A DNA stretch of 64,000 nt, taken from NCBI RefSeq assembly GCF_058153355.1, contig NZ_CM177019.1. One strand, written 5' to 3'. A program made the translations under genes and the position numbers. A model generated the notes under the pieces. The model saw nothing but the letters and a program-made list of their open reading frames with translations. It had not been told where the DNA came from and did no database searches. Shown one piece after another: positions 4,448 to 60,850 of this stretch. Numbering within the stretch: position 1 is the stretch's first letter; every line of letters starts with the position of its first letter.

Positions 4448-6727
4448 ATGGATGACCAGTTAAAACAAAGTGCACTTGATTTCCATGAATTTCCAGTTCC
4501 AGGGAAAATCCAGGTTTCTCCAACCAAGCCTCTGGCAACGCAGCGCGATCTGGCGCTGGCCTACTCACCAGGCGTTGCCGCACCTTGTCTAGAAATCGAA
4601 AAAGACCCGTTAAAAGCCTACAAATATACCGCTCGTGGTAACCTGGTGGCGGTGATCTCTAACGGTACGGCGGTGCTGGGGTTAGGCAACATTGGCGCGC
4701 TGGCAGGCAAACCGGTGATGGAAGGCAAGGGCGTTCTGTTTAAGAAATTCGCCGGGATTGATGTATTTGACATTGAAGTTGATGAACTTGACCCGGACAA
4801 ATTTATTGAAGTCGTCGCTGCGCTCGAACCGACCTTCGGCGGCATCAACCTCGAAGACATTAAAGCGCCAGAATGTTTCTATATTGAACAGAAACTGCGC
4901 GAGCGGATGAATATTCCAGTATTCCACGACGATCAGCACGGCACGGCAATTATCAGCACTGCAGCCATCCTCAACGGATTGCGCGTGGTGGAGAAAAACA
5001 TCTCCGACGTGCGAATGGTGGTTTCCGGCGCGGGTGCAGCAGCAATTGCCTGTATGAACCTGCTGGTAGCGCTGGGGCTGCAAAAACATAACATCGTGGT
5101 TTGTGATTCAAAAGGCGTTATCTATCAGGGCCGTGAGCCAAATATGGCGGAAACCAAAGCCGCATATGCGGTGGTGGATGACGGCAAACGTACCCTCGAT
5201 GATGTAATTGAAGGCGCGGATATTTTCCTGGGCTGTTCCGGCCCGAAAGTGCTGACCCAGGAAATGGTTAAGAAAATGGCTCGTGCGCCGATGATCCTGG
5301 CGCTTGCAAACCCGGAACCAGAAATTCTGCCGCCGCTGGCGAAAGAAGTGCGTCCGGATGCCATCATCTGTACCGGCCGTTCCGACTACCCGAACCAGGT
5401 TAATAACGTGCTTTGCTTCCCGTTCATCTTCCGTGGCGCGTTGGACGTTGGTGCAACTGCCATCAACGAGGAAATGAAACTGGCGGCGGTACGCGCGATT
5501 GCAGAACTGGCCCATGCGGAACAGAGCGAAGTCGTTGCTTCGGCGTATGGCGATCAAGATTTGAGCTTCGGTCCGGAATACATCATTCCAAAACCGTTTG
5601 ATCCGCGTTTGATCGTTAAGATCGCTCCTGCGGTCGCTAAAGCGGCGATGGAGTCGGGCGTGGCGACGCGTCCGATTGCTGATTTCGACGTCTACATCGA
5701 CAAGCTGACTGAGTTCGTTTACAAAACCAACCTGTTTATGAAGCCGATTTTCTCCCAGGCCCGCAAAGCGCCGAAGCGCGTTGTTTTGCCGGAAGGGGAA
5801 GAGGCTCGCGTTCTGCATGCTACTCAGGAACTGGTGACGCTGGGACTGGCGAAACCGATCCTTATCGGTCGTCCGAACGTGATCGAAATGCGCATTCAAA
5901 AACTGGGCTTGCAGATCAAAGCGGGCGTTGATTTTGAGATCGTCAATAACGAATCCGATCCGCGTTTTAAAGAATACTGGACCGAATACTTCCAGATCAT
6001 GAAGCGCCGTGGTGTAACTCAGGAGCAGGCACAGCGGGCGCTGATCAGTAACCCGACAGTGATCGGCGCGATCATGGTTCAGCGTGGCGAAGCCGATGCA
6101 ATGATTTGCGGTACGGTGGGTGATTATCATGAACACTTCAGCGTGGTGAAAAATGTCTTTGGTTATCGCGATGGCGTTCACACCGCAGGTGCAATGAACG
6201 CGCTGCTATTGCCGAGTGGTAACACTTTTATTGCCGATACCTACGTCAATGACGAGCCAGACGCAGAAGAGCTGGCGGAGATCACCTTGATGGCGGCAGA
6301 AACTGTTCGTCGTTTTGGTATTGAGCCGCGTGTGGCTCTGTTGTCGCACTCCAACTTTGGTTCTTCTGACTGCCCGTCGTCGAGCAAAATGCGTCAAGCG
6401 CTGGAACTGGTCAGAGAGCGTGCGCCAGAACTGATGATTGATGGTGAAATGCACGGCGATGCAGCGCTGGTGGAAGCGATTCGCAGCGATCGTATGCCGG
6501 ACAGCCCTTTGAAAGGTTCCGCCAATATTCTGGTGATGCCGAACATGGAAGCTGCCCGTATTAGTTACAACTTACTGCGCGTTTCCAGCTCGGAAGGTGT
6601 GACTGTCGGTCCGGTGCTGATGGGTGTGGCGAAACCGGTTCACGTGTTAACACCAATCGCATCCGTACGTCGTATCGTCAACATGGTGGCGCTGGCCGTG
6701 GTTGAAGCGCAAACCCAACCGCTGTAA
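4448..6727 (+). CDS. maeB: NADP-dependent malic enzyme (malic enzyme domain fused to a PTA-like domain)
   Basis: 759-aa ORF; divergent from talA as in K-12. Confidence 0.93.
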
Positions 6728-6744: not shown

Positions 6745-6777
6745 CGCTTACCCTGAATATTCAGGGTAAGCGGTTTT
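6745..6777 (+). terminator. rho-independent terminator after maeB
   Basis: cgcttaccctga-atat-tcagggtaagcg hairpin followed by gtttt. Confidence 0.6.
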
Positions 6778-10374: not shown

Positions 10375-10668
10375 ATGGAAGCATTAGGAATGATCGAAAC
10401 CCGGGGCCTGGTTGCACTGATTGAGGCTTCTGATGCGATGGTGAAAGCTGCGCGCGTCAAACTGGTTGGTGTTAAGCAGATTGGCGGCGGCCTGTGTACT
10501 GCCATGGTTCGCGGTGATGTTGCAGCCTGTAAAGCCGCGACCGATGCCGGTGCCGCAGCGGCACAGCGTATCGGTGAACTGGTATCCGTACATGTTATTC
10601 CGCGTCCGCACGGCGACCTGGAAGAAGTTTTCCCGATCGGCCTGAAAGGCGATAGCAGCAACCTGTAA
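10375..10668 (+). CDS. eutM: EutM, major BMC shell protein
   Basis: [28 protein letters not shown]... canonical BMC-H domain, 97 aa from internal Met. Confidence 0.92.
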
Positions 10669-10675
10669 TCACCCT

Positions 10676-10716
10676 GTGTGACGTCGATTCGGGCGTCACG
10701 CTCTCTCCTTTTTCAG
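10676..10716 (+). terminator. Intra-operon hairpin plus U-rich tract between eutM and eutN (possible partial terminator/attenuator)
   Basis: gtgacg...cgtcac stem (10678-10683 / 10694-10699) followed by ctctctccttttt. Confidence 0.3.
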
Positions 10717-10773
10717 TTTACCTTCCGCGGAGGGTAGGGGAGCTTTTACCTGAAATACGCCACGGAGGCGGGT

Positions 10774-11061
10774 ATGAAACTGGCAGTCGTCACAGGACAA
10801 ATTGTTTGTACCGTACGCCATCACGGACTGGCGCATGACAAATTGCTGATGGTGGAAATGATTGATCCACAAGGTAATCCTGATGGGCAATGTGCTGTCG
10901 CCATCGACAATATTGGCGCGGGAACCGGGGAGTGGGTGTTGCTGGTGAGTGGCAGTTCCGCCCGCCAGGCGCATAAAAGCGAAACGTCACCGGTCGATCT
11001 GTGCGTAATTGGCATTGTCGATGAGGTGGTCTCTGGCGGTCAGGTAATTTTCCACAAATAA
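10774..11061 (+). CDS. eutN: EutN, BMC vertex protein
   Basis: 95-aa ORF MKLAVVTGQIVCTVRHHGL...; EutN/CcmL-like. Confidence 0.9.
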   Translation: MKLAVVTGQIVCTVRHHGLAHDKLLMVEMIDPQGNPDGQCAVAIDNIGAGTGEWVLLVSGSSARQAHKSETSPVDLCVIGIVDEVVSGGQVIFHK

Positions 11062-14500: not shown

Positions 14501-14501
14501 A

Positions 14502-14586
<85 letters not shown>

Positions 14587-14616
14587 ATAAATAACAACTA
14601 ACAGGGAGTAAAGGCG

Positions 14617-15843
14617 ATGGGAATTAACGAAATCATCATGTACATCATGATGTTCTTTATGCTGATAGCTGCCGTGGACAGGATCCTGTCGCAGTTCGGC
14701 GGTTCTGCTCGTTTCCTCGGTAAGTTCGGTAAAAGTATCGAAGGATCAGGCGGTCAGTTCGAAGAAGGCTTTATGGCAATGGGCGCTCTGGGCCTGGCGA
14801 TGGTCGGTATGACCGCGCTGGCACCGGTACTGGCTCACGTACTCGGGCCGGTAATTATCCCGGTTTACGAAATGCTCGGCGCAAACCCGTCAATGTTCGC
14901 CGGAACGCTGCTGGCGTGCGATATGGGCGGCTTCTTCCTCGCCAAAGAGCTGGCGGGCGGCGACGTAGCAGCGTGGCTATACTCTGGGTTAATTCTCGGG
15001 TCGATGATGGGGCCAACGATTGTGTTTTCCATTCCGGTGGCGCTCGGCATTATCGAACCTTCTGACCGTCGTTATCTGGCGCTCGGCGTGCTGGCGGGCA
15101 TTGTGACCATTCCGATTGGCTGTATTGCTGGTGGTCTGGTGGCTATGTACTCCGGTGTGCAGATCAACGGTCAGCCGGTGGAATTCACCTTTGCCCTGAT
15201 CCTGATGAACATGATCCCGGTACTTATCGTTGCGGTGCTGGTGGCGCTGGGGCTGAAATTCATCCCGGAAAAAATGATCAACGGCTTCCAGATCTTCGCC
15301 AAATTCCTCGTTGCATTGATCACCCTCGGTCTTGCTGCCGCGGTAGTGAAATTCCTGCTCGGTTGGGAACTGATCCCCGGTCTGGATCCGATCTTCATGG
15401 CCCCTGGCGATAAACCCGGTGAAGTGATGCGCGCCATTGAAGTTATCGGTTCTATCTCCTGCGTGCTGTTAGGGGCGTATCCGATGGTGCTGCTGCTGAC
15501 CCGCTGGTTTGAAAAACCGCTGATGAGCGTCGGTAAAGTGCTGAATATGAACAACATCGCGGCAGCCGGCATGGTGGCAACGCTTGCCAACAACATCCCG
15601 ATGTTTGGCATGATGAAGCAGATGGATACCCGCGGCAAAGTCATCAACTGTGCCTTCGCCGTTTCCGCTGCTTTCGCCCTGGGTGACCACTTAGGCTTCG
15701 CCGCTGCCAACATGAACGCCATGATCTTCCCGATGATTGTCGGCAAGTTGATCGGCGGCGTAACGGCGATTGGCGTGGCGATGATGCTGGTGCCAAAAGA
15801 AGACGCGACCGCGGCTAAAACCGAAGCGGAGGCACAATCGTGA
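14617..15843 (+). CDS. eutH: EutH, ethanolamine permease
   Basis: 408-aa polytopic membrane ORF. Confidence 0.9.
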   Translation: MGINEIIMYIMMFFMLIAAVDRILSQFGGSARFLGKFGKSIEGSGGQFEEGFMAMGALGLAMVGMTALAPVLAHVLGPVIIPVYEMLGANPSMFAGTLLACDMGGFFLAKELAGGDVAAWLYSGLILGSMMGPTIVFSIPVALGIIEPSDRRYLALGVLAGIVTIPIGCIAGGLVAMYSGVQINGQPVEFTFALILMNMIPVLIVAVLVALGLKFIPEKMINGFQIFAKFLVALITLGLAAAVVKFLLGWELIPGLDPIFMAPGDKPGEVMRAIEVIGSISCVLLGAYPMVLLLTRWFEKPLMSVGKVLNMNNIAAAGMVATLANNIPMFGMMKQMDTRGKVINCAFAVSAAFALGDHLGFAAANMNAMIFPMIVGKLIGGVTAIGVAMMLVPKEDATAAKTEAEAQS

Positions 15844-17243
15844 ACACTCGCCAGCTACTGAGCGTCGGTATCGATATCGGCACTACCACCACCCAGGTGA
15901 TCTTCTCCCACCTGGAGCTGGTTAACCGTGCGGCGGTGTCGCAGGTGCCGCGCTACGAATTCATCAAACGCGAAATTAGCTGGCAAAGCCCGGTGTTCTT
16001 TACCCCTGTCGATAAACTGGGCGGTTTAAAAGAAGCGGAACTGAAAACCTTAATCCTCGAGCAATATCAGGCTGCGGGCATTGCGCCGGAAAGCGTTGAT
16101 TCTGGTGCCATCATCATCACCGGTGAAAGCGCGAAAACCCGCAATGCTCGCCCGGCGGTGATGACGCTCTCTCAGTCGCTGGGCGATTTTGTCGTTGCCA
16201 GCGCTGGGCCGCATCTCGAATCCGTGATCGCCGGTCACGGTGCTGGGGCGCAAACCCTTTCTGAACAACGGTTATGTCGGGTACTGAATATTGACATCGG
16301 CGGTGGCACCGCGAACTACGCTTTGTTCGATGCCGGAAAAATCAGCGGCACTGCCTGCCTTAACGTCGGCGGTCGCCTGCTGGAAACCGACAGCCAGGGG
16401 CGCGTGGTTTACGCTCATAAACCGGGGCAGATGATAGTGGATGAGTGCTTTGGTGCAGGCACTGACGCCCGTTCACTGACCGGCGCGCAGCTGGTGCAGG
16501 TTACCCGGCGGATGGCGGAACTGATTGTCGAAGTGATTGACGGAACGCTCTCGCCGCTCGCGCAGGCATTGATGCAAACCGGTTTGCTGCCCGCAGGTGT
16601 TACGCCCGAAATCATTACGCTTTCTGGCGGCGTGGGCGAATGTTATCGCCACCAGCCCGCTGACCCGTTCTGTTTTGCCGATATTGGCCCGCTTCTGGCA
16701 ACGGCGCTGCATGAGCATCCTCGTCTGCGTGAGATGAACGTGCAGTTTCCAGCGCAAACCGTGCGCGCCACGGTGATTGGCGCGGGCGCACATACTCTTT
16801 CGCTCTCTGGCAGCACAATCTGGCTGGAGGGGGTACAACTGCCGCTGCGCAATTTGCCGGTGGCGATCCCAATTGATGAAACGGATCTGGTGAGTGCCTG
16901 GCAACAGGCGCTGATTCAGCTGGATCTTGATCCCAAAACTGACGCGTACGTGCTGGCGCTTCCCGCCTCGCTGCCTGTGCGTTACGCCGCGGTACTGACG
17001 GTCATCAACGCGCTGGTCGATTTCGTCGCGCGTTTTCCGAATCCGCATCCCCTGCTGGTGGTGGCCGGGCAGGACTTTGGTAAAGCTCTGGGCATGTTGT
17101 TGCGCCCACAGCTACAACAACTCCCGTTGGCAGTCATTGACGAAGTGATTGTCCGCGCGGGGGACTATATCGACATTGGTACGCCTCTTTTTGGCGGATC
17201 GGTTGTGCCGGTGACGGTGAAATCACTCGCATTTCCTTCCTGA
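15840..17243 (+). CDS. eutA: EutA, ethanolamine ammonia-lyase reactivase
   Basis: 467-aa ORF; operon position. Confidence 0.9.
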   Translation: MNTRQLLSVGIDIGTTTTQVIFSHLELVNRAAVSQVPRYEFIKREISWQSPVFFTPVDKLGGLKEAELKTLILEQYQAAGIAPESVDSGAIIITGESAKTRNARPAVMTLSQSLGDFVVASAGPHLESVIAGHGAGAQTLSEQRLCRVLNIDIGGGTANYALFDAGKISGTACLNVGGRLLETDSQGRVVYAHKPGQMIVDECFGAGTDARSLTGAQLVQVTRRMAELIVEVIDGTLSPLAQALMQTGLLPAGVTPEIITLSGGVGECYRHQPADPFCFADIGPLLATALHEHPRLREMNVQFPAQTVRATVIGAGAHTLSLSGSTIWLEGVQLPLRNLPVAIPIDETDLVSAWQQALIQLDLDPKTDAYVLALPASLPVRYAAVLTVINALVDFVARFPNPHPLLVVAGQDFGKALGMLLRPQLQQLPLAVIDEVIVRAGDYIDIGTPLFGGSVVPVTVKSLAFPS

Positions 17244-17254
17244 GGGAACGACTT

Positions 17255-18616
17255 ATGAAACTAAAGACCACATTGTTCGGCAATGTATATCAGTTTAAGG
17301 ATGTAAAAGAGGTGCTGGCTAAAGCCAACGAACTTCGTTCGGGGGATGTGCTGGCGGGCGTTGCAGCGGCAAGCTCACAGGAGCGCGTGGCGGCAAAGCA
17401 GGTGTTGTCGGAAATGACTGTAGCGGATATCCGCAATAATCCGGTGATTGCCTATGAAGATGACTGCGTGACGCGACTGATTCAGGACGACGTTAACGAA
17501 ACGGCCTACAACCAGATTAAAAACTGGAGCATCAGCGAACTGCGTGAGTATGTGCTGAGTGATGAAACCAGCGTTGGCGACATTGCTTTTACCCGCAAAG
17601 GGCTGACCTCGGAAGTGGTCGCGGCGGTAGCGAAGATTTGCTCTAACGCGGACCTGATCTACGGCGCGAAGAAAATGCCGGTAATCAAAAAGGCCAATAC
17701 AACTATTGGTATTCCGGGCACCTTCAGCGCCCGTTTGCAGCCAAACGATACCCGCGACGACGTGCAAAGTATCGCCGCGCAAATCTACGAAGGGCTTTCT
17801 TTCGGGGTGGGCGATGCGGTGATCGGCGTTAACCCGGTGACTGACGACGTGGAAAACTTAAGCCGCGTGCTGGATACCATCTATGGCGTGATCGACAAAT
17901 TCAACATTCCGACCCAGGGCTGCGTGCTGGCGCACGTTACTACCCAGATTGAAGCGATCCGTCGCGGCGCGCCGGGCGGGCTGATTTTCCAGAGCATCTG
18001 CGGCAGCGAAAAAGGGCTGAAAGAGTTTGGCGTAGAGCTGGCGATGCTCGACGAAGCGCGCGCAGTGGGCGCGGAGTTCAACCGTATCGCCGGGGAAAAC
18101 TGCCTCTACTTCGAAACCGGGCAAGGCTCGGCGCTATCCGCTGGCGCTAACTTCGGCGCTGACCAGGTGACGATGGAAGCACGTAACTATGGGCTGGCGC
18201 GTCATTATGATCCGTTTATCGTCAACACCGTGGTCGGTTTTATTGGGCCGGAGTATCTCTACAACGACCGCCAGATTATCCGTGCTGGCTTAGAAGATCA
18301 CTTTATGGGCAAGCTGAGCGGCATCTCTATGGGCTGTGACTGCTGCTACACCAACCACGCTGACGCTGACCAGAACCTCAACGAAAACCTGATGATCCTG
18401 CTCGCCACCGCAGGCTGCAACTACATCATGGGGATGCCGCTGGGTGATGACATCATGCTCAACTACCAGACCACCGCATTCCACGATACCGCCACTGTGC
18501 GTCAGTTACTCAACCTGCGCCCGTCACCGGAGTTTGAACGCTGGCTGGAAAGCATGGGCATTATGGCAAACGGTCGCCTGACCAAACGGGCGGGCGATCC
18601 GTCACTGTTCTTCTGA
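17255..18616 (+). CDS. eutB: EutB, ethanolamine ammonia-lyase large subunit
   Basis: 453-aa ORF, follows eutA directly. Confidence 0.93.
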   Translation: MKLKTTLFGNVYQFKDVKEVLAKANELRSGDVLAGVAAASSQERVAAKQVLSEMTVADIRNNPVIAYEDDCVTRLIQDDVNETAYNQIKNWSISELREYVLSDETSVGDIAFTRKGLTSEVVAAVAKICSNADLIYGAKKMPVIKKANTTIGIPGTFSARLQPNDTRDDVQSIAAQIYEGLSFGVGDAVIGVNPVTDDVENLSRVLDTIYGVIDKFNIPTQGCVLAHVTTQIEAIRRGAPGGLIFQSICGSEKGLKEFGVELAMLDEARAVGAEFNRIAGENCLYFETGQGSALSAGANFGADQVTMEARNYGLARHYDPFIVNTVVGFIGPEYLYNDRQIIRAGLEDHFMGKLSGISMGCDCCYTNHADADQNLNENLMILLATAGCNYIMGMPLGDDIMLNYQTTAFHDTATVRQLLNLRPSPEFERWLESMGIMANGRLTKRAGDPSLFF

Positions 18617-57564: not shown

Positions 57565-57640
57565 TGGTGGGTCGTGCAGGATTCGAACCTGCGACCAATT
57601 GATTAAAAGTCAACTGCTCTACCAACTGAGCTAACGACCC
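57565..57640 (-). tRNA. lysV: tRNA-Lys (anticodon UUU)
   Basis: Reverse complement is GGGTCGTTAGCTCAGTTGGTAGAGCAGTTGACTTTTAATCAATTGGTCGCAGGTTCGAATCCTGCACGACCCACCA; 76 nt with encoded CCA. Confidence 0.95.
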
Positions 57641-57644
57641 GAAG

Positions 57645-57720
57645 TGGTGGGTGATGACGGGATCGAACCGCCGACCCCCTCCTTGTAAGGGAGGTGCTCT
57701 CCCAGCTGAGCTAATCACCC
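57645..57720 (-). tRNA. valY: tRNA-Val (anticodon UAC)
   Basis: Reverse complement is GGGTGATTAGCTCAGCTGGGAGAGCACCTCCCTTACAAGGAGGGGGTCGGCGGTTCGATCCCGTCATCACCCACCA; gene symbol from remembered operon order. Confidence 0.93.
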
Positions 57721-57766
57721 ACTTCGGTACTTCACATTGTTACAAGAAATCTAGCTGGCGAGAAAG

Positions 57767-57842
57767 TGGTGGGTGATGACGGGATCGAACCGCCGACCCC
57801 CTCCTTGTAAGGGAGGTGCTCTCCCAGCTGAGCTAATCACCC
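57767..57842 (-). tRNA. valX: tRNA-Val (anticodon UAC)
   Basis: Identical 76-nt copy. Confidence 0.93.
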
Positions 57843-57886
57843 ACTTCTCAATTTCTTGCTACACGGCGGAGACTACATAAAGTAGT

Positions 57887-57962
57887 TGGTGGGTGATGAC
57901 GGGATCGAACCGCCGACCCCCTCCTTGTAAGGGAGGTGCTCTCCCAGCTGAGCTAATCACCC
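57887..57962 (-). tRNA. valU: tRNA-Val (anticodon UAC)
   Basis: Identical 76-nt copy; first gene of the operon. Confidence 0.93.
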
Positions 57963-60659: not shown

Positions 60660-60735
<76 letters not shown>

Positions 60736-60774
60736 AAATTTTGCACCCAGCAAATTTGGTACGTAAACGACTCG

Positions 60775-60850
<76 letters not shown>

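Follow-up and report, generated by a model that had tools for sequence, protein, structure and literature searches.

Introduction

Newbury et al. are said to have described the intercistronic REP of malE-malF as a protective stem-loop in 1987. The REP at malE-malF, and 3' hairpins generally, are now established exonuclease barriers that reshape operon stoichiometry (PMC5927463, PMC4423207), the first of these papers covering many operons across the E. coli genome. The eutM-eutN spacer of Escherichia is similar to the malE-malF type in that a stable stem-loop lies just 3' of the better-expressed upstream gene in a read-through transcript and is kept among enterobacteria, and the eutM-eutN site itself carries REP/BIME elements in Salmonella, Klebsiella and some Citrobacter. 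It differs in that the first hairpin of the spacer (hairpin 1) is single-copy and not a REP in the window, by which we mean the whole 64-kb stretch of DNA analysed here, and in that eut is known here from sequence and published expression tables. According to Dar and Sorek (2018; PMC5927463), most protective structures lie inside the downstream coding sequence, whereas the eutM-eutN hairpin sits in a dedicated spacer.

A second close case is the selective RNA processing and stabilisation (SRPS) in the cip-cel operon of Clostridium cellulolyticum (PMC4423207), where intergenic stem-loops are found 3' of the most abundant subunit genes of a multi-protein assembly. Most of these stem-loops have no U-run, the downstream genes are still transcribed, and the stem-loops have been gained, lost and replaced in evolution. 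C. cellulolyticum, however, belongs to another phylum with another RNase set, and in its operon the sites of processing have been mapped and the free energies of the stem-loops found to correlate with transcript ratios. A further difference is that eutM mRNA is not the most abundant segment of its operon.

Partial intrinsic terminators are known after major subunit genes, as for the papA and fimA pilins and the rplL-rpoB attenuator; they have canonical U-tracts and cause a lasting downstream drop. The eut junction shares with them a hairpin after the gene of a major structural subunit, with minor subunits and other genes downstream. Its U-tract is poor, however, and mRNA recovers after eutN.

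ANTAR sites are paired hexaloop hairpins (conserved A1/G4) that overlap true terminators. Such terminators, controlled by the ANTAR protein EutV, occur in eut loci of Enterococcus, Listeria and Clostridium (PMC5821096), so that there too RNA hairpins lie inside or ahead of eut genes and control read-through. ANTAR control needs EutV/EutW, whereas enterobacterial eut uses EutR. Since the loop of hairpin 1 is GAUUCG in Escherichia and 4–22 nt long elsewhere, and the loop of the second hairpin (hairpin 2) is 4 nt, the eutM-eutN element is not the ANTAR dual-hexaloop motif.

To build a microcompartment, one operon has to supply shell hexamers, vertex pentamers and enzymes in very different quantities. 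How this stoichiometry is encoded is poorly understood and matters for the engineering of synthetic compartments. A conserved, swappable stem-loop at the boundary between eutM (hexamer) and eutN (pentamer) offers a concrete and testable handle on it.

Layout of the eutM-eutN junction

The window contains an intact Escherichia eut operon (95–99% identity to E. coli) with the gene order eutS, P, Q, T, D, M, N, E, J, G, H, A, B, C, L, K, R, at about 6.95–21.8 kb. The genes eutM and eutN, both on the plus strand, are separated by 105 nt (table 1). The first-pass annotation had called this gap unusually long. This is true of most of the operon, where the remaining junctions are 45 nt or shorter or overlap, but the gap is not unique, as 116 nt separate eutG from eutH. 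The eutG-eutH gap is filled by an inverted REP pair, and matches to the REP core GCCGGATAAGRCG lie at 14523–14535 and 14556–14568; the window as a whole has six such matches against 0.21 expected. Because eutM-eutN and eutG-eutH are the only long gaps and both carry stable palindromes, the operon has two punctuation points. In E. coli LF82, eutH mRNA is 3-fold above that of eutG (514 versus 168 RPKM, PMC6379400), and the BIME junction, too, may reshape transcript levels.

Table 1. Features of the eutM-eutN junction, and the REP pair of the eutG-eutH gap, in window coordinates.
Feature	Position	Strand	Basis	Remarks
eutM, major hexameric shell protein (BMC-H)	10375–10668	+	ORF, translation, RefSeq annotation of orthologous E. 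coli region	
eutM stop codon	10666–10668	+		TAA
Hairpin 1	10676–10701	+		10-bp stem GUGUGACGUC/GGCGUCACGC (DNA GTGTGACGTC/GGCGTCACGC), loop GAUUCG
Pyrimidine/U-rich tract	10702–10714	+	MFE fold, RNAalifold	UCUCUCCUUUUUC (DNA ctctctccttttt)
Helix 2, 5' arm	10703–10709	+	MFE fold, RNAalifold	CUCUCCU
Hairpin 2	10720–10735	+	MFE fold, RNAalifold	ACCUUC-CGCG-GAGGGU, nested in helix 2
Helix 2, 3' arm	10736–10742	+	Fold, alignment	AGGGGAG, one G fewer than all E. coli
U4, then invariant motif	10744–10754 (motif 10746–10754)	+	Cross-genus alignment	UUACCUGAA
eutN ribosome-binding site	10764–10776	+		GGAGG 10764–10768, AUG 10774–10776
eutN, pentameric vertex protein	10774–11061	+	ORF, annotation	
REP pair (BIME, inverted) filling eutG-eutH gap	gap 14501–14616; REPs 14503–14536, 14555–14585	not assigned	Sequence	

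The 105-nt spacer of the window is in frame with both genes because its G-run is one base shorter than in E. coli; every complete E. coli genome searched has a spacer of 106 nt, which is out of frame. We rejected an EutM-EutN fusion by stop read-through, as the window has a second in-frame stop (TAG, 10735–10737) within the spacer and the 106-nt E. coli spacer is out of frame. A single fused 690-bp eutMN ORF has been annotated in S. Typhi CT18 and Ty2 (PMC3548604). Upstream of eutN, CGGAGG is invariant in all aligned spacers, and the ribosome-binding region is no more structured than its shuffles (z = +0.35).

Structure of the spacer

Hairpin 1 begins 7 nt past the eutM stop codon. A gtgacg/cgtcac stem had been noticed here in the first pass; it is present, and is in fact a hairpin of 10 bp, six of them G-C and two G.U, with a loop of 6 nt. 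Its folding energy is −16.2 kcal/mol (z = −4.4), a value that no sequence among 200 dinucleotide shuffles matched. The 64-kb window holds one copy of the stem motif (0 expected), and the motif is single-copy in 5,407 of 5,426 complete E. coli genomes, with a median of one place per genome. A REP/BIME identity was rejected, as GTGTGACGTC...GGCGTCACGC lacks the consensus GCCGGATG...CATCCGGC and is present in one copy rather than dispersed. We also rejected a dimeric operator at the DNA level, since the two half-sites are only 4 nt apart in some spacers and as much as 22 nt apart in others.

The stem is of the kind found in intrinsic terminators (GC-rich stem-loop, about 5–14 bp), and a terminator-like scan lists this GC-rich 10-bp hairpin with the pyrimidine/U-rich stretch behind it, passing permissive criteria only marginally. 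The scan is not enriched over shuffles (28 sites in the 18 kb region versus 21.6 ± 5.2), so the match at hairpin 1 by itself carries little weight. The U-rich tract reported in the first-pass annotation does exist, but it is not a canonical tail. In UCUCUCCU, which follows hairpin 1, four of eight bases are U, interrupted by C and never consecutive, and the U5 run in the tract starts only 8 nt downstream of the stem. Intrinsic terminators carry a U-rich tract of about 7–9 nt immediately 3' of the stem, and the window has none at this place. Instead, most of the tract forms the 5' arm of a second structure: both the single-sequence MFE fold and RNAalifold pair CUCUCCU (10703–10709) with AGGGGAG (10736–10742), which together with the nested hairpin 2 gives a composite stem-loop spanning 10703–10742.

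The composite stem-loop is followed by C-UUUU-A and UUACCUGAA. The UUUUA is conserved in Escherichia, Citrobacter and K. spallanzanii, while UUUU with UUACCUGAA stays unchanged from Escherichia as far as Buttiauxella and Entomohabitans, at which distance neutral sites are near saturation; REP-type spacers do not contain UUACCUGAA. This stretch is possibly a single-stranded cleavage or landing site. A reading in which the conserved CTG in UUACCUGAA starts a small ORF, or extends EutN at its N terminus, was rejected because the frame is broken in Buttiauxella and the loop indels are not multiples of three. A near-copy of the UUACCUGAA region, TTTACCT, is found at 10718–10724.

These features bear on the possibility that the junction is a partial intrinsic terminator, at which a share of the polymerases would be halted just past hairpin 1, or past the composite stem-loop and its UUUU, lowering eutN-eutR relative to eutS-eutM. 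The position of UUUUA immediately 3' of the composite stem-loop in Escherichia, Citrobacter and K. spallanzanii would suit such a site. The tail of hairpin 1, broken by C and sequestered in helix 2, speaks against it, as do terminator-like matches that do not rise above chance in the region. We regard partial termination as unlikely, and termination at this site in Escherichia as weak at most.

Comparison across genera

We fetched 48 loci using EutN, with one genome per species, and compared the 41 distinct spacer sequences from loci in which eutM precedes eutN. The gap was long in every such locus (52–211 nt). Hairpins of the GTGACG type, with the core GTGACG-Y-C ... G-R-CGTCAC and loops of 4–22 nt, were found in Escherichia, the Citrobacter freundii group, Klebsiella spallanzanii, Buttiauxella, Entomohabitans and Yokenella. 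REP/BIME palindromes were found instead in Salmonella, most Klebsiella, C. koseri, C. amalonaticus, C. sedlakii, Pseudocitrobacter and Pluralibacter, and unrelated, unique GC-rich hairpins in Intestinirhabdus, Pseudomonas nitroreducens, Pseudothauera and a Rhodocyclaceae metagenome-assembled genome. Counting the GTGACG type, REP/BIME and the unique GC-rich hairpins, at least six unrelated sequence types occupy the junction. All 41 spacers are more stable than their own dinucleotide shuffles (median z = −2.4), and each of them has a hairpin of −11.9 kcal/mol or stronger that starts 0–22 nt (mostly <12 nt) past the stop. That one hairpin has been exchanged several times for unrelated ones, REP/BIME among them, is a natural experiment and suggests that a punctuation function would reside in structure rather than in sequence.

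A U-rich tail after the hairpin was seen in the GTGACG type only (3–6 U in 8 bases). In REP-type spacers the first 8 bases contain 0–2 U; two Salmonella subspecies, with 3 and 4, are the exceptions. As REP-type spacers mostly have no U-tail, the common denominator at the junction is a stem-loop near the eutM stop and not a terminator. In Buttiauxella, hairpin 1 runs directly into a textbook UUUCUUUAA tail and is the sole terminator-like site in 1 kb; this canonical look is confined to Buttiauxella, where partial termination is more plausible than in Escherichia.

K. spallanzanii (L043) has a spacer of the Escherichia/Citrobacter type together with a 98%-identical EutM, while other Klebsiella (L029–L031, L036) have REP-type spacers. 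This pattern suggests that the eut locus was exchanged horizontally or that REPs took over the spacer independently.

In the Salmonella-type pdu operon (L050–L052, 2501–3594), pduA and pduB overlap by 4 nt, leaving neither spacer nor hairpin. Microcompartment operons thus do not as a rule place a hairpin behind the major shell gene, and we rejected an extension of the design to pdu at pduA-pduB.

The absence of a spacer behind pduA in the pdu operon also bears on whether the eutM-eutN spacer has any function. It might be a tolerated gap that collects palindromes, with REPs homing to intergenic DNA and the GTGACG hairpin a relic, and the wide variation in spacer length and content (52–211 nt), with REPs of several architectures inserted, would agree with this. 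We nevertheless find it highly improbable: the gap is lost in no lineage examined, all 41 spacers exceed their shuffles in structure, and the stem is conserved, with compensatory changes, across genera whose neutral sites are saturated.

Conservation and covariation

Covariation was analysed in an alignment of 22 non-REP spacers, in which Yokenella is not aligned over hairpin 1. The stem core of hairpin 1 is invariant in 21 sequences from five genera, with seven invariant pairs and one running CG/UG/UA; Yokenella has A-U in place of the first core pair, G-C in the other genera. Helix 2 is 91% paired, and three of its eight pairs are changed on both sides. Of the seven pairs in hairpin 2, four have changed on both sides in a compensatory manner; in Citrobacter sp. 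R56/NCU1 and K. spallanzanii, for instance, A-U is replaced by G-C and C-G by U-A. The three-helix structure leaves 93% of alignment cells paired, compared with 43–63% when the partners are slid by 1–3 columns, and its covariation score was reached by none of 500 column shuffles. RNAalifold recovers the same three helices independently. The eutM-eutN spacer is thus a conserved structured RNA, consisting of hairpin 1, the composite stem-loop and a short single-stranded U/A-rich stretch.

Four-fold degenerate sites of eutM/eutN are 60–63% identical between Escherichia and Citrobacter and 42–52% identical between Escherichia and Buttiauxella, Entomohabitans or Yokenella. Because the stem is invariant while these sites are only 42–63% identical, the hairpin 1 stem is under purifying selection. 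The invariance of the stem and of UUACCUGAA exceeds what a generic exonuclease barrier needs, which counts against a role in decay of the kind proposed below.

This invariance, across genera with near-saturated neutral sites and with a constant stem around a loop of anywhere from 4 to 22 nt, would be expected of a sequence-specific regulatory RNA. A protein or small RNA might recognise the GUGACGYC stem and UUACCUGAA, or the spacer might be processed to a stable small RNA, tuning shell stoichiometry to a signal. We consider this very unlikely. Strong G-C stems are slow to change anyway, and Salmonella, Klebsiella, C. koseri and C. amalonaticus have swapped the whole spacer for REPs, retaining only the Shine-Dalgarno sequence; since whole clades have replaced the spacer, its specific sequence is dispensable. 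Rfam 15 gave no match in 10600–10850 even at E ≤ 10, and only tRNAs in the whole window at the gathering score. The RefSeq annotation of about 5,400 E. coli genomes holds no feature at hairpin 1. A more specific version, with just as little probability in our view, is that a factor (ProQ, Hfq, CsrA, a Eut protein or a small RNA) reads the GUGACGYC stem, the CU-rich/G-rich switch helix and UUACCUGAA and sets the amount of EutN and downstream enzymes per EutM. If true, the spacer would be an RNA-encoded controller of microcompartment shell geometry, or the source of a stable small RNA.

Expression across the junction

We then compared the junction with published expression data. In E. coli W3110 grown with ethanolamine and B12, relative iBAQ values are EutQ 100, EutM 96, EutL 39, EutB 37, EutE 27, EutC 24, EutS 11, EutD 10, EutK 8, EutG 7, EutP 7 and EutN 1 (PMC11334477). 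EutM exceeds every downstream protein, as partial termination would predict, and EutE, EutB, EutC and EutL reach about 25–40% of its level.

In E. coli LF82 with bile salts, a single, weakly induced condition in which small genes are measured, the RPKM values are eutS 76, eutP 166, eutQ 192, eutT 83, eutD 357, eutM 177, eutN 62, eutE 149, eutJ 147, eutG 168, eutH 514, eutA 223, eutB 358, eutC 286, eutL 126, eutK 94 and eutR 308 (PMC6379400). Uninduced values are eutM 55, eutN 5, eutE 14 and eutJ 13. The eutM/eutN ratio is therefore 2.9-fold when induced and 11-fold at the basal level, in one published data set and for small genes. The LF82 values show no lasting step-down in mRNA, as eutE, eutJ and eutG stand at about 85–95% of eutM and eutH, eutA, eutB and eutC are higher. 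In these single-condition, suggestive numbers the RNA falls in eutN alone and is back up at eutE, a pattern that segmental decay can produce but a terminator cannot. In EHEC, differential-expression values are level across the junction (eutM 4.37, eutN 4.30, eutE 4.14; PMC6199705). Together, these data suggest that transcription reads through the spacer and that the downstream genes are co-induced and expressed.

An E. coli Term-seq supplement (PMC7815308), in which the operon is uninduced, records no sense-strand 3' end at the spacer. It does list a low-count antisense 3' end in the 3' part of eutM (MG1655 2572217, + strand; about 10599–10658 of the window, minus strand), which implies some antisense transcription across the spacer. 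We saw no convincing antisense promoter in the spacer, and an internal promoter was rejected because no sigma-70-like site is present on either strand, the nearest being a weak match in eutN (10835–10862). The supplements of the E. coli operon-decay study (PMC5927463) gave no eut entry.

The first-pass annotation had also proposed that the hairpin sets the high ratio of EutM to downstream products, which probably overstates its effect. The mRNA of eutM lies below that of eutD (357), eutH (514) and eutB (358). As eutM is not the most abundant segment, any stabilising effect would be modest at most. The eutD message is twice as abundant as that of eutM, yet EutD protein is about ten-fold scarcer than EutM; the level of EutM protein therefore appears to be mainly translational, although this comparison of RNA and protein is drawn across studies and is suggestive only. 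EutM abundance is thus probably set for the most part by translation, with little contribution from the hairpin.

An effect on translation has to be weighed for the spacer as well. Hairpin 1 could modulate termination or ribosome release at eutM, or the spacer could insulate or repress eutN and so keep the vertex protein rare. Liang, Rudd and Deutscher reportedly found in 2015 that REP elements within 15 nt of a stop codon affect termination and ribosome release. As it starts only 7 nt past the stop, hairpin 1 must be melted by the terminating ribosome, and a similarly short distance is seen in all 41 spacers. EutN protein is about 1% of EutM (PMC11334477), yet its mRNA is only about 3-fold lower (PMC6379400). 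The CU-rich arm (CUCUCUCC) and UACCU resemble the anti-Shine-Dalgarno sequence, and RNAalifold pairs UACC with GGUA at the eutN AUG. This pairing shows no covariation in the alignment, however, and the ribosome-binding region has no excess stability and an invariant, strong GGAGG, so that we rejected occlusion of the eutN ribosome-binding site. REP-type spacers are entirely without the CU-rich arm, EutM is among the most abundant Eut proteins, its translation not visibly impaired, and the EutN estimate may be biased by few awkward tryptic peptides. On balance, an element acting at the level of translation seems quite unlikely.

A proposed role in mRNA decay

We favour operon punctuation by differential mRNA decay, in which the eutM-eutN spacer would serve both as a 3' exonuclease barrier and as an insulating spacer, and we put the probability of this reading at roughly one half. 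A full-length eut transcript would read through the spacer, and an endonuclease, presumably RNase E, would cut in the single-stranded U/A-rich stretch after the composite stem-loop or in eutN. RNase E prefers RN↓WUU, which the U/A-rich stretch after the composite stem-loop fits. The 3'-to-5' exonucleases would then degrade back until halted by the stable hairpins near the eutM stop, leaving the eutS-to-eutM message protected and the eutN segment lost faster. The long structured spacer may in addition uncouple eutN translation from the heavy ribosome traffic on eutM; EutN protein is scarce in spite of an apparently strong ribosome-binding site. The structure and its conservation, the unrelated hairpins that take its place elsewhere and the expression of the genes beyond the spacer are observed; that the RNA is cut, that exonucleases are halted and how large the effect is are what we infer for this site.

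The features that mark a protective intercistronic stem-loop are found here: a stable stem-loop at the 3' boundary of a better-expressed upstream cistron in a read-through operon, and a structure conserved at that boundary (41 of 41 spacers, covariation, unrelated replacements). Tests for a REP and for the U-tract of an intrinsic terminator were negative. The genuine REPs at the orthologous position in sister genera are the strongest single argument for a decay barrier; the pduA-pduB junction, which has no spacer, counts against one. Of the two functions first suggested for the hairpin, that of an RNA-stability element fits best, since REP/BIME elements, classic stabilisers of mRNA 3' ends, sit at the same site elsewhere, but that of a partial terminator is weakened in Escherichia by the poor, paired U-tract and by a dip confined to eutN.

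Punctuation by hairpins is of an ordinary kind, previously undescribed for the eut operon, and the literature that we searched gave no description of the eutM-eutN spacer. The element is real, conserved and relevant to microcompartment stoichiometry, and mechanistically conventional. Recombinant eutSMNLK constructs with and without the spacer may behave differently.

Other features of the locus

In the window, eutA (15840–17243) and eutB (17255–18616) adjoin with 11 nt between them. We take K-12 strains to carry the CPZ-55 prophage between these two genes, in which case the window would represent the uninterrupted form of the operon. A strong terminator-like hairpin at 6745–6772 (12-bp stem, then GTTTTACTGT) lies between an upstream ORF of 759 aa (4448–6727) and eutS, and is presumably a terminator that isolates the eut promoter region. 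Two tRNA clusters are found further downstream in the window, with four genes at 57568–57962 on the minus strand and two at 60661–60848 on the plus strand.
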